NCBI GenBank assembly: GCA_963666115.2
Contig: CAXXET010000007.1
Location: forward strand, 256,595-320,594
Length of the DNA: 64,000 bases
DNA from: Dehalococcoidia bacterium
GTDB taxonomy: Bacteria; Chloroflexota; Dehalococcoidia; UBA6926
Direction: 5' to 3'
Each line of letters opens with the position of its first letter. The first letter of the stretch is position 1. The notes below the pieces were generated by a model that searched no databases, was not told the DNA's origin, and worked only from the letters and a program-made list of their open reading frames with translations. Both the position numbers and the translations under genes were made by a program. Positions 10,743 to 15,597 of this stretch are shown here, piece by piece.

Positions 10743-11624
10743 ATGATGAGTTCTCAGCAGGCTCAATTTCGTGGCTTTGTAATGCAGATTCACGTTCCAT
10801 CTGGAGTTCCCGACAGCCTAAGAGTGGTGTCAAAGGACAACTGGAACGGCGAAGGTGCCTTCTTCTCGCGTACGTCTTATTCGGAAGTCAGGACCGGCGG
10901 ATCGTTTGATTTCGAACGAACAGGAGTCTACGTTCTCTGGGGACCAGCCGACGAAAGCGATTTACTGCGGGTATATGTGGGGGAGGCTGATCACTTGCGC
11001 AATAGGCTCAATGAACAATTCGTGCAACTGGACTTCTGGACAAACGCCGTCGCCTTTTGCTCCAGTAACCAGAACCTGAACAAGGCGCATGTGCGCCACA
11101 TCGAAGCTAGACTGATCGCGTTGGCTGACGAGGCGAAGCGGTGTCTACTTGAGAATGCTAACGCTCCTAGAATTCCACACCTGTCTCCCGGTGACAGAGA
11201 TACGGCTGAGAATTACCTCTCGGATATGTTACTGTGCTTACCCGTGCTAGGGGTAAACTTCTTTGAGAGGACAAGGCCACGCGACATAAGTCTTAAGGAT
11301 CTCACTATCAACTCAACAGCTTTACGCGCGACGGGGTACGAGGATGTATCGGGGTTTGTAGTAAGGGAAGGCTCTCAGACGGCCAAAAATGAAACCAAGA
11401 CTATACGTCCAACGATGTCGGACTTACGAGCCGACTTGCTGAAAAAGGGGGTTCTCGTGGACAAAAATGACGCCTACGAGTTCACTCAAGATTACTCGTT
11501 TAGTGCACCAACCACGGCAGCTAATGCCATCTTGGGCTCGTCATCAACCGGTCTTGACATCTGGAAAGGCGCTGATGGGCGCACGCTTAAGCAGATCCGT
11601 GAAGAACAGAGTCGCTCAGAATAA
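10743..11624 (+). CDS. GIY-YIG nuclease family protein with DUF4357-like C-terminus
   Basis: GVYVL...VYVGEA..LRNRL, NLNKAHV..IE, and C-terminal FTQDYSFSAPTTAA..ILG...G...WK..DGRTL. Lower GC than neighbours. Confidence 0.85.
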   Translation: MMSSQQAQFRGFVMQIHVPSGVPDSLRVVSKDNWNGEGAFFSRTSYSEVRTGGSFDFERTGVYVLWGPADESDLLRVYVGEADHLRNRLNEQFVQLDFWTNAVAFCSSNQNLNKAHVRHIEARLIALADEAKRCLLENANAPRIPHLSPGDRDTAENYLSDMLLCLPVLGVNFFERTRPRDISLKDLTINSTALRATGYEDVSGFVVREGSQTAKNETKTIRPTMSDLRADLLKKGVLVDKNDAYEFTQDYSFSAPTTAANAILGSSSTGLDIWKGADGRTLKQIREEQSRSE

Positions 11625-11695: not shown

Positions 11696-11995
11696 TTAGT
11701 CTCCAATTGATCCAGGGAAGCGTCGGCTGCTGTGCCGGATATGAAGAAGCTCCACACCATCTTCGATCGGCCGGTAGAAGGTCACGTACGGAGTTGAGGG
11801 CGCGGCGAACGTCCGAATACCAAGGCCTGACTCCGGACGTGATGCGCCCATGCGTGGTTGATCGGCCAGACGAAAGCAAAGGGCTTCCAGGCGGTCAACC
11901 AGCCTGTGAGCGTTGGCTACGCTGTCATCGGCTACGTAGTCGGTAATCTGCTGAAGATCGCGGAGTGATCGCTGGGAAAAGACGCAACGGCTCAT
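11696..11995 (-). CDS. RelE/ParE family type II toxin
   Basis: RDLQQITDYVA.DS...A, LADQPRMG..R.E, FYR, ELLHIRHSSR. 4-nt overlap with the upstream antitoxin. Confidence 0.85.
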   Translation of the reverse strand: MSRCVFSQRSLRDLQQITDYVADDSVANAHRLVDRLEALCFRLADQPRMGASRPESGLGIRTFAAPSTPYVTFYRPIEDGVELLHIRHSSRRFPGSIGD

Positions 11996-12258
11996 TCGAC
12001 GTGCTGCTCTGTTTCCCGAATCCGCTCCCGCACATCGGCGAAGACCTCTTCGGCGGTGTACACCTCGCCGCGGGCGATCTGGTCGATGCTGGTCTGGATC
12101 TTCTCGCGGATGTCCGCGAGTTCCTCTTCGTAGCCCTCGTCGCCCGGCCTCAGGAGGCCCATCTCATCGCCGAATCCGTCGTCAGACGCGCCGTTCCGGC
12201 CGGGCTCAGCGGGAGCGCCGGCGGAGGCCTTGGTCTCGTCTCTGTCAGAGATGTCCAT
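11992..12258 (-). CDS. Putative antitoxin (ParD-like C-terminal region)
   Basis: Acidic 88 aa ORF coupled to the toxin. LADIREKIQTSIDQIARGEVYTAEEVF resembles ParD toxin-binding tails. Confidence 0.65.
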   Translation of the reverse strand: MDISDRDETKASAGAPAEPGRNGASDDGFGDEMGLLRPGDEGYEEELADIREKIQTSIDQIARGEVYTAEEVFADVRERIRETEQHVE

Positions 12259-12370
12259 GCGCCAAGGCTACTCCGTTGGACAATCTGTGGCAACCGGCGG
12301 CGCCCTTACGCAGGCGGGTCATCATGAGTATCATGACAACAGGACGCCGAAGAGCAGGAGACCATATCCC

Positions 12371-12721
12371 ATGCCAAACATTGAGTTCTATCATTGGACG
12401 ACTTGAAACACCTGCAAGACAGCGAAAGCGGCGCTTTCGCAAGCGGGTCACGAGTTCGCGGAGCGCGACTTCTTCAAGGAGCGCATGACGCGGGAGGAGA
12501 TTGTCGCGCTGCTGGGCGACTCGCCGCCCAGCGCGTTGTTCAATCCCAGGTCGCAGGCGCTCAAGAAGGCAGGAATCGATGTCGCGTCACTGAGCGAGGA
12601 TCAGATGCTTGACCTGCTCGTCGAGGAGCCGCGCTACTGGCGGCGTCCGGTGGCGGTCATCGATGGCAAGCTGGTGGCGGGAGCAAACGCCAAGACGCTG
12701 GCAGCGGAACTGGGACTGTAG
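12371..12721 (+). CDS. ArsC/Spx/MgsR-family thioredoxin-fold protein, probable selenoprotein (UxxC)
   Basis: AGGAG RBS, then ATG 12371 reads MPNIEFYHWTT-TGA(12404-12406)-NTCKTAKAAL..RDFFKERMTREE, in frame with ORF 12485-12721 (EPRYWRRPV). 116 aa in total. Confidence 0.85.
12410..12448 (+). promoter_or_regulatory. Candidate bacterial SECIS element
   Basis: Lower stem ACCTGC(12410-15)/GCGGGT(12443-48). Perfect 8-bp upper stem GCGAAAGC(12422-29)/GCTTTCGC(12433-40) with G-starting loop GGC, about 23 nt after the UGA. Confidence 0.7.
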
Positions 12722-12726
12722 CGGCG

Positions 12727-13170
12727 CTATTTCTTGGTCGGTAGCTCTACCGTCGCCGCGCCGGGGGTGACCTTTTCGCCTTTCTGGTTGGTGATCAACA
12801 TCTCAAGATCAACGACGTTCCGGCCTTCATCATCCACGCGCTTATCCGTCACGCGGCCCGTGCACGTCAGCATGTCGTTCTTGAAATTGATGCCGCGCAG
12901 TTGGGCATTCAGCGTCAGGATCACGCCCTCTTCGCCGATCCACTTGCGGACCAGCGTGTGCAGGTAGGAAACACGGATGCGCCCCTGCCCGATGACCGCC
13001 GGCTGGCCGTTCTCCTTCGCCCCCTCATCGTCCATGTGGTACGGCACGAACTCATCGTACGTGGCAGCCCAGCGATTCCAGTTCATCAAGTCCGTCACGC
13101 GCTCAAACGGCGGCAACTCCTGACCGACCTCAACATCGTCCCAATAAAGCGTTGCTTCTTGCGTCGTCAT
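12727..13170 (-). CDS. MaoC-family dehydratase
   Basis: YWDDVEVGQELP, DEFVPYHMD (D..H hydratase-like motif), NQKGEKVTPGAATVELP. Confidence 0.85.
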   Translation of the reverse strand: MTTQEATLYWDDVEVGQELPPFERVTDLMNWNRWAATYDEFVPYHMDDEGAKENGQPAVIGQGRIRVSYLHTLVRKWIGEEGVILTLNAQLRGINFKNDMLTCTGRVTDKRVDDEGRNVVDLEMLITNQKGEKVTPGAATVELPTKK

Positions 13171-13749: not shown

Positions 13750-14193
13750 CTACTTCTTCAACTCCTTTTCGAGGTTCTTGATGAAGTCTTTCATCTGGGA
13801 GTTGGCCTTGGAGCGGATGAACGGCTGCCCCATCGTGCCCAGCTTGCCCATGAACTGGATGTCCGTTGCGACGGTGAGGGTCGAACTGTCCGCGCCCGCC
13901 TCGGCGATGGCCGCGTCGACGATGACGCGCAGCCCGCCGCCCGCAAGCGCCTTCGCGTTGCCCTCGATGCGCCACGTATAGTCCTCGGCGTTCTGCGTGG
14001 TCGTCAACTCTCCGTCGAGGCTGATCTTCATCGGGCCGACGCGCGTCTCCATTTTCCCGGAATACGTGTCCGGGCCTGTTTCGGCGACGTCCCTGACGCC
14101 GGGAATCAACCCCGCCGCGCGGGGGACGTCCTGCAACAGCGCCCACACGTCCTCACGCGACGCGCCCACCTGCGATTCCTGTTCGATCTTCAT
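13750..14193 (-). CDS. coxG: CoxG/SRPBCC family protein
   Basis: VWALLQD...AGLIPG, VGPMK, GKLGTMGQ..I...A...F..NL. Follows coxS/coxM-like genes. Confidence 0.8.
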   Translation of the reverse strand: MKIEQESQVGASREDVWALLQDVPRAAGLIPGVRDVAETGPDTYSGKMETRVGPMKISLDGELTTTQNAEDYTWRIEGNAKALAGGGLRVIVDAAIAEAGADSSTLTVATDIQFMGKLGTMGQPFIRSKANSQMKDFIKNLEKELKK

Positions 14194-14230
14194 TCCCTGT
14201 GATTGTCCTTTCGCCGGTGATGGCCGGCTG

Positions 14231-15091
14231 CTATTCGAGTCCCAGCACGCGCGTCAGCGCCCGCCGCGTGAACACCACCGCCATGTCCGTCTTGTACTCC
14301 GCGGAGCCTCGGAAGTCCGGCGTCGGCGCGCACAGATCGCGCACCGTCTCCGCCGCCTCACGCACCAGGTCTGCCGTCGGGGCCTTGCCCACCAGCACGC
14401 CCGCGACGCTCTCCGCGTACACGGCTGTCGAATTGACCGCGCCCAAGCCGACGCGCGCGTCCGTCACCACGCCGCCGTCAACCACCCCGAGCGCGGAGAC
14501 CGCGACCGTCGGATAATCGTCTGCCGTGCGTGGCAGGAACTTGATGTACGTGGTCTTCGCATTCGCCGGAGCCGCCGGAACGGTGATGCCCGTCACAATC
14601 TCGCCCTCTTCAACGCCCGTCGTGTAGTAGTCAACGAACCAGTCGTCTCGAACCTTGACCGTCCGCTCCCCGTCCTTCGATGCCACGTGAACGCTCGCGT
14701 CGAGCACGAGGAGCGTGGGGGGCGGGTCCTGCGCCGGGTCGCCGTGGGCGACGCCGCCGCCGACCGTCGCCGCGTTGCGCACGCGCACCGTCGCGACCTC
14801 GCCATAGGTCTCGGTCAGGAGCGGGACATTCTCATGGACGACGCTCGACGTCGCCATCTCCTGCTGCGTCGTGCGGCCTCCCACCTGCAGGCCCTCGCCC
14901 GTCATGCGGATGTAGTCGAGGCCGTCGACGTTCTGGAGGCTGACCAGGTGGTCAACGTAGATGAGGTCTTGCTTCATCATGTTGATCAAGCCGGTGCCGC
15001 CGGAAATGACGCGCGCCTCCTCGCCGTAGTCGCTCAGCAGGCTGTGGGCCTCCGCCAGCGTGGAGGGCGTGTGGAACTGGAAGTCTCTCAT
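14231..15091 (-). CDS. Xanthine dehydrogenase/CoxM-family FAD-binding (medium) subunit
   Basis: Start MRDFQFHTPSTLAEA at 15091; SGGTGL, VRNAATVGG..AHGDPAQD, DFRGSAEYK. Confidence 0.9.
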   Translation of the reverse strand: MRDFQFHTPSTLAEAHSLLSDYGEEARVISGGTGLINMMKQDLIYVDHLVSLQNVDGLDYIRMTGEGLQVGGRTTQQEMATSSVVHENVPLLTETYGEVATVRVRNAATVGGGVAHGDPAQDPPPTLLVLDASVHVASKDGERTVKVRDDWFVDYYTTGVEEGEIVTGITVPAAPANAKTTYIKFLPRTADDYPTVAVSALGVVDGGVVTDARVGLGAVNSTAVYAESVAGVLVGKAPTADLVREAAETVRDLCAPTPDFRGSAEYKTDMAVVFTRRALTRVLGLE

Positions 15092-15102
15092 GTCGCCCTC
15101 CC

Positions 15103-15597
15103 CTAGTTGCCCAGCCGGATCATTTCGCCGGCCTTCTGGATGGATTCGATAATCTTGTAGTAGCCCGTGCAGCGGCACAGGTTGCCCATCATCCAGTCCT
15201 TGATCTCGTCCTCCGTGGGATCGGGATTCTGCTGGAGCAGGGCGCGCGAGGCCATGATCTGGCCGGGCGTGCAGATGCCGCACTGGAACCCGCCGTAGTT
15301 CATGAATGCCTCTTGCAGCGGGTGCAGCTTGTCGCCGTCCGCCACGCCCTCGATGGTCGTGAGATTCGCGCCGTTGGCCTGGACGGCGAGCAGGATGCAG
15401 GACGAGACGATCACACCGTCCATCTCCACCGTGCAGATGCCGCACACGCCGACGCTGCAGGCCTCCTTGGTGCCCGTCAGGCCTAGGTCATACCGGATGA
15501 AATCGACGAGCGTTCGTCGAGGCGGAACCTCCGCCGAATACTCCGTGCCGTTGATGGTGACCGTCACCGGCACGCGGGCCACTGTGTCTGTCGTCAT
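15103..15597 (-). CDS. Xanthine dehydrogenase/CoxS-family 2Fe-2S (small) subunit
   Basis: [37 protein letters not shown]. Confidence 0.93.

Follow-up and report, generated by a model that had tools for sequence, protein, structure and literature searches.

Gene organization and reading frame

The window, that is, the whole stretch of 64,000 nucleotides of Dehalococcoidia DNA that was analysed, carries on its forward strand a candidate selenoprotein gene with a hairpin inside its coding sequence, preceded by a DUF4357 gene and by a ParE-family toxin gene with its overlapping partner (Table 1). The reading frame starts with MPNIEFYHWTT, reaches an in-frame TGA, continues as NTCKTAKAALSQAG... 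and stays open until a TAG. The preliminary description had proposed that a ribosome-binding site and an ATG give MPNIEFYHWTT ahead of this TGA and NTCKTAK after it, with the TGA in frame with the remaining fold and an RRP motif; all of these elements were read directly at the coordinates in Table 1.

Table 1. Coordinates of the candidate selenoprotein gene, its sequence elements and the adjoining inserted genes (positions of the window)
Feature	Position	Strand	Remarks
DUF4357 gene	10743-11624	+	between CoA-transferase and selenoprotein genes
ParE-family toxin gene	11696-11995	-	between CoA-transferase and selenoprotein genes
88-aa ORF	11992-12258	-	no Pfam match, overlaps ParE gene; probably antitoxin
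Shine-Dalgarno-like AGGAG	12356-12360	+	10 nt ahead of ATG 12371; read directly
Full CDS, putative 116-aa ArsC/Spx-fold selenoprotein	12371-12721	+	ATG 12371, TAG 12719-12721; translated with TGA = U
In-frame TGA, putative Sec residue 12	12404-12406	+	opens U-N-T-C; conserved in homologs; on Cys10 of Spx
Lower tier of hairpin	12410-12448	+	12410-12415/12443-12448; in minimum-energy fold here, only part of family
TGC, Cys15	12413-12415	+	resolving partner in UxxC; invariant in 31/31 aligned sequences
SECIS-type hairpin	12422-12440	+	8-bp stem 12422-12429/12433-12440, apical loop GGC 12430-12432; pairing conserved, covariation
78-aa ORF from ordinary gene calling	12485-12721	+	replaces full gene; from ORF listing
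R91-R92-P93 motif, ArsC/Spx fold	12641-12649	+	R92 and P93 invariant in 31/31; aligns with Spx RRP

The frame is also open upstream of the ATG, as far as 12230. The start was placed at 12371 because the orthologs share nothing 5′ of this ATG beyond a GGAG-like stretch, which occurs at similar spacing in most of the orthologous loci, the upstream DNA being otherwise dissimilar. Across these loci, residues 1-11, ahead of the UGA, are conserved as protein and variable in their codons, with Pro2 encoded by CCA, CCC, CCT or CCG, Ile4 by ATT, ATC or ATA, His8 by CAT or CAC, and Phe6 and Tyr7 by two codons each. Such codon variation under a conserved protein is a signature of translation, unlike what a chance frame would leave.

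Ordinary gene calling does not recover this gene. The sole ORF that the table 11 listing gives at the locus is the 78-aa one, and among the 22 close relatives found by a word-based protein search the query coverage reached 81% at most, the public calls being 69-164 aa long and several of them exactly 78 aa, which agrees with the earlier expectation that standard callers shorten the gene to this length. The description of the gene as "hidden" therefore holds for annotation, where database calls cover no more than 81% of the protein; it does not hold for the literature, in which ArsC-like UxxC selenoproteins are already listed.

Conservation of the in-frame TGA codon

A six-frame search was performed on 61 genomes, including that of the window (G000), and gave matches in 29 of them: besides G000, the rest of the genus (21 of 21 genomes) and 7 of the 33 genomes that represent the class outside this family were matched, and no match was obtained in 6 genomes of two other genera of the same family. 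In all 20 loci that were read through (G000 and 19 congeners, 70-88% identity), the same codon was TGA, followed by x-T-C. In the congener G003 a frameshift around residue 25 divided the ortholog (L048, G003:C1:66727-67672) in two, the result of either pseudogenization or misassembly, and the TGA was kept in its N-terminal piece. The congener G009 carried an intact copy with TGA at 66% identity (L047) plus a degraded second copy (L049, G009:C1:1437461-1438507), still with TGA, whose frame was lost after about 46 residues. The degraded copy lay at the syntenic site, adjoining the dehydratase-like gene that flanks the gene of the window, and the intact one lay elsewhere and bore the stem variant (Arg19, CTC) and the motifs of a second clade, which suggests that the original gene was replaced by a second-clade gene.

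This second clade was recovered by the scan of a genome-contig database, which revealed 23 loci, all 23 with TGA. Eleven of them repeated proteins already present in the first set, and the remaining 12 constituted the second clade, at 61-66% identity, eight of them lying on records as large as a chromosome (2.8-3.3 Mb). The loci are labelled as Dehalococcoidia, apart from one "Chloroflexota bacterium" and another named "SAR202 cluster bacterium". Among the seven distant homologs from other families of the class (28-41% identity), six presented a UxxC motif (UTSC, USTC twice, UTTC, UTGC and UTQC) and one, from G055, presented Cys in the form CSQC.

A wider view was given by a profile search against 1.84 billion cluster representatives, which returned 4518 proteins at E ≤0.001; 149 of the best 150 were aligned. 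Residues 12 and 15 of these 149 were C..C in 82, C..S in 2 and C..I in 1, and residue 12 was absent from the protein as called in 62 (58 without both positions and 4 without the first only). The other two, P0027 (YFWNRWSSCR) and P0126 (YCFPTWRTCR), had Trp at residue 12 and probably represent Sec genes whose TGA was translated as Trp by the code used in gene calling. A search for homologs with Cys or TGA at this codon, which had been advised at the outset, thus returned both: TGA in 20/20 and 23/23 loci, and Cys in G055 and in 82 of the 149 representatives.

It had also been considered that sequencing reads might show TGC or TGT at 12404. Contigs spanning 12404-12406 came from two public runs, and no alternative letter was found at the TGA. 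One, of 151 bases, was identical to the window and may share its source; the other, of 1096 bases, presented 34 differences from the window, none of them at the TGA.

The hairpin downstream of the UGA

The stem of the hairpin starts 15 nt past the UGA and its GGC loop 23 nt past; counted from the U, positions 19-26 pair with 30-37 around a loop at 27-29. A 45-nt stretch containing the hairpin folded at -17.6 kcal/mol (z = -2.9), with 2 of 200 shuffles folding equally well, and a longer stretch of 67 nt gave an unremarkable fold (z = -1.12). The case for the hairpin is built on conservation and not on energy.

In the 27 Sec-containing sequences, 97.7% of the 216 cells of the 8-bp stem were paired, against 36-63% in slid controls, and compensatory changes were found in 4 of the 8 stem pairs (G-C to A-U, A-U to C-G, A-U to G-C and C-G to A-U). 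None of 500 shuffles matched the observed percentage of pairing or the covariation score, a significance that is overstated by the relatedness of the sequences. Moreover, the codons of the stem were frozen: in 20 orthologs, a single codon was used at all four invariant four- or six-fold degenerate residues in the stem (Ala18, Ala20, Leu22 and Ser23) and at 0 of 27 such residues elsewhere (Fisher p = 3e-5). In the second clade, Lys19 (AAG) was replaced by Arg (AGG) and its pairing partner in Leu22 changed synonymously from CTT to CTC, so that an amino-acid change on one arm of the stem was silently compensated on the other. The conserved peptide A-K-A-A-L-S could explain part of the stem conservation; however, the frozen synonymous sites and the compensatory changes argue otherwise.

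The lower tier behaved differently, being paired in only 63% of the cells across the same 27 sequences. The two-tier hairpin with a G-led loop about 23 nt downstream, as first proposed, is therefore conserved in its upper tier, and its lower tier forms here and only in part of the family. The description of bSECISearch reportedly sets limits on loop length, asks that one of the first two nucleotides of the loop be a G and places the loop 16-37 nt from the UGA. The hairpin, with a loop of only 3 nt (GGC or GGU), would fit these criteria. The Cys form that was folded, that of G055, gave a predicted structure without a comparable 8-bp hairpin at that place.

An Rfam scan of 12200-12900, with E values up to 10, returned no SECIS-type family. 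Its five matches (mir-219, mir-488, Bp1_684 and two snoRNAs) all fell under the gathering scores and were taken as chance, including the mir-219 match at 12241-12294 (-) within the terminal portion of the presumed antitoxin gene, with 29.6 bits (E 1.8e-4) against a gathering score of 54.5.

Selenocysteine machinery and genetic code

The assembly of this genome comprises 2.07 Mb in 9 contigs and is 100% complete. The preliminary description had implied selA, selB, selC and selD elsewhere in the genome, and the whole set was present: selA (539.2 bits), selB (329.8 bits), selD (386.6 bits) and a tRNA-Sec (68 bits), each over its curated cut-off, the last being reported by ARAGORN as tRNA-SeC with anticodon tca. 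With this, all three conditions that the preliminary description had named as refuting its interpretation (a genome devoid of Sec machinery, TGC or TGT in the reads, and close homologs that never carry TGA) turned out in its favour. The selD gene (L010 on contig C6 of G000, ~1531-1533) contains one in-frame TGA, in the context ...LSHCAG-TGA-AAKLG..., and the selenophosphate synthetase of the genome would, by this sequence, itself be a selenoprotein.

In the window, TGA terminates 4 of the 15 long non-overlapping ORFs and is an ordinary stop there. An alternative code in which TGA means Trp or Gly was discarded on these terminations, on the alignment of the site with a Cys in homologs and on the presence of the Sec machinery.

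Family assignment and fold

For the profile scans of the 116-aa product, its U was written as C. The product belongs to the Pfam ArsC family (PF03960, 49.5 bits against a cut-off of 24) and reaches the cut-off of none of the curated NCBIfam models. The best NCBIfam match was Spx/MgsR TIGR01617 (54.3 bits against 75.05), together with the nitrogenase-associated TIGR01616 (50.3 against 109), arsC TIGR00014 (29.8 against 106.05) and NF041106 ArsC_rel_Se_1 (23.7 against 85, as a weak full-length alignment over residues 7-108), and NF008107, "ArsC family reductase", was absent from its NCBIfam matches. Two distant Sec-containing relatives exceeded the TIGR01617 cut-off, with 93.7 and 76.5 bits. NF041106 was also run on seven other homologs, of which the six distant ones gave 22.5-36.6 bits and the seventh, the G009 copy, did not reach E 0.001.

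In a phmmer search against PDB sequences, Spx chains ranked first (E 6e-9), with U12 and C15 placed on C10 and C13 of Spx and RRP on RRP; the TGA thus falls, as had been claimed, at the first Cys of a CxxC motif, C-T-S-C in Spx. The AlphaFold model, built from a 31-sequence alignment, reached a pLDDT of 91.8 and presented a strand at residues 4-8 and a helix at 13-24 directly after U12, which would put residue 12 at the classical position ahead of helix 1. Among the 21 best-ranked Foldseek rows (TM 0.65-0.80), the best matches were chains of Spx (TM 0.72-0.79, E 2e-8), YffB (0.80) and E. coli ArsC (0.76-0.78). Residue 60 is an Arg in the window protein and varies among R, K, N and Q over the family.

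Proposed decoding, chemistry and rival readings

The reading preferred here, to which a probability of roughly 87% is assigned, is that 12371-12721 is a stand-alone gene for a 116-residue selenoprotein of the ArsC/Spx/YffB fold, in which the UGA at codon 12 would be decoded as selenocysteine. The 8-bp hairpin with its G-led apical loop would be bound by SelB carrying Sec-tRNA(Sec), and SelB bound in this way would deliver Sec to the ribosome. In the product, Sec12 and Cys15 are located where helix 1 begins and would cycle between the selenol/thiol and the selenenylsulfide states, and the protein may act as a small thiol-disulfide-type oxidoreductase, a role that, taken on its own, is favoured with modest confidence. 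Sec as the leading residue of a CxxC-type motif, placed where helix 1 of a thioredoxin-like fold begins, is the layout that characterizes thiol-disulfide oxidoreductases, and therefore the selenenylsulfide/selenol-thiol cycle is the most likely chemistry of the pair.

One rival takes the TGA as an ordinary stop, the locus being either a gene in decay or one for a short ArsC fragment protein of 78 aa, preceded by a chance frame. The gene callers do read the locus so, and TGA does terminate other ORFs in the window; however, a decaying gene would not be expected to keep a stop at one codon down to 28-41% identity, nor a chance frame to combine protein-level conservation with synonymous variation upstream of the TGA, and the 78-aa product would, according to the model, lack the first strand and the first helix. 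The truly decayed copy of G009 (L049), with its frame lost early, also looks different, and this reading is regarded as extremely improbable. A functional rival accepts the Sec and makes the protein a glutaredoxin-coupled arsenate reductase of the R773 ArsC type, with Sec replacing the catalytic Cys12. Membership in the Pfam ArsC family and the fold match to E. coli ArsC chains agree with this, as does the Sec-containing "Arsenate reductase (ArsC) 1" family, which is in print in the available portion of PMC2398784. That same portion gives UxxS as the motif of Sec-containing ArsC 1, whereas the motif here is UxxC, as in Spx-type proteins. TIGR00014 stays far below its cut-off, residue 60 varies, no member of an ars-type family, be it an efflux pump or an ArsR-type regulator, and hence no ars operon context, was found among the seven window neighbours and five second-clade ORFs scanned, and none of the window's neighbours is an ars-type gene in the synteny of the genus. 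An arsenate reductase of this type is consequently judged very unlikely.

The other functional rival makes the protein a redox-switched regulator of the Spx/MgsR type, which would bind RNA polymerase and have the selenenylsulfide as its switch. Spx chains are the best PDB matches both in sequence and in fold, U12 and C15 align with the Spx pair, and TIGR01617 is the best NCBIfam match, with two distant Sec-containing relatives above its cut-off; against this, the window protein itself stays under that cut-off, has 116 aa against the 131-132 aa of full-length Spx chains, ending ahead of the Spx C-terminal tail, and carries a Pro at the residue aligned with Spx Gly52. Gly52 of Spx is important for the contact with the alpha subunit. 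To our knowledge, Spx function is documented only in Firmicutes, and we know of no selenoprotein transcription regulator that has been described. The regulator reading is held to be improbable to a high degree. A selenium-based counterpart of Spx, whose selenenylsulfide switch would dock on RNA polymerase and reprogram transcription, is in the same way a long shot, and that it would act in marine Dehalococcoidia exposed to oxidative stress or thiol stress is a quite doubtful supposition.

Relation to known proteins

Selenocysteine-containing ArsC-like proteins had been stated to be already reported, and the literature bears this out. The portions available of the papers concerned describe ArsC-like selenoproteins in Desulfotalea and Desulfuromonas in 2006 (PMC1794560), the families "Arsenate reductase (ArsC) 1, UxxS" and "Arsenate reductase 2, cd03032, UxxC" in the GOS study (PMC2398784), and an "Arsenate reductase-like protein, COG1393, UxxC" in a 2022 list of prokaryotic selenoproteins (PMC9312934). 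Since ArsC-like UxxC selenoproteins are in print in these portions, the kind is a described one, and the gene of the window is a further member of it and brings no new mechanism. The second GOS family and the COG1393 row, as presented in the same portions, share with the window protein the ArsC-family fold, a UxxC with Sec first and the existence of Cys homologs; the window subfamily, with the pattern YHW-x-x-U-x-T-C-K ... EEPRYW-R/K-RP, is likened to them by description and not by sequence. A literature search joining Spx, selenocysteine and UxxC found no paper.

NF041106 ArsC_rel_Se_1, "ArsC family (seleno)protein", resembles the window protein in being a curated ArsC-family model that permits Sec and in its weak alignment over residues 7-108. 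The low scores of the window protein (23.7 bits against 85) and of six other homologs (22.5-36.6) are the grounds on which the window protein is placed in a different subfamily. Bacillus subtilis Spx (PDB 1z3e, 3gfk and 7f75) is similar in fold, in the position of the redox pair before helix 1 and in the RRP motif, and differs in that the window protein has Sec for the first Cys, ends about 15 residues earlier and stays below the TIGR01617 cut-off. The resemblance to YffB (PA3664, PDB 1rw1) and E. coli R773 ArsC (PDB 1i9d) lies in the fold (TM 0.80 and 0.78, respectively), the sequence match being weak, with TIGR00014 far under its cut-off and no match to NF008107. YffB and R773 ArsC use one catalytic Cys and are not known to rely on a CxxC pair.

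The practical value of the gene is in annotation, in that the gene of this lineage is called in an N-terminally shortened form, the 78-aa ORF is devoid of the active site and no curated NCBIfam selenoprotein model rescues it. The family is also a clean example, suited to teaching, of how an RNA signal can be embedded in a coding sequence, with frozen synonymous sites and silent compensation across the arms of the stem. Moreover, the gene adds to the published picture of Dehalococcoidia as a group that can be selenoprotein-rich and that the available portion of the BSepDB paper of 2026 (PMC13326102), whose BLAST example is an arsenate reductase-like protein, places among the selenoprotein-richest genomes.

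Gene neighbourhood

Within the genus, the selenoprotein gene is flanked by a CoA-transferase III gene on one side and by two convergent dehydratase-like genes on the other, and this interval also holds variable inserted material. The window neighbours that were scanned comprised the CoA-transferase III gene, DUF4357, the ParE toxin with its partner ORF without a match, a 147-aa ORF without a match, a FAS1-type dehydratase and CoxG. Congeners hold differing subsets of the DUF4357, ParE and partner genes at the same spot, and the segment 10743-12258 of the window looks, from this comparison, like an insertion hot spot. In the second clade, mutL was located 3′ of the selenoprotein gene in both loci examined and a TctA transporter gene upstream in one of them, the ORFs scanned there giving TctA and MutL matches plus two ORFs without a match. 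No conserved gene partner emerges, and since the neighbours differ between the two clades, the context gives no hint of a substrate. A promoter and terminator scan of 12000-13000 revealed neither a sigma-70-like site nor a terminator downstream of the gene, a result that is uninformative for this phylum.

As a separate observation, the CoxG-family gene of the window lies within 13750-15597 (-) and matches PF06240 with 61 bits. The two ORFs that follow it have translations that, by eye, resemble the FAD-binding and 2Fe-2S subunits of an enzyme of the CO-dehydrogenase/xanthine-dehydrogenase type.
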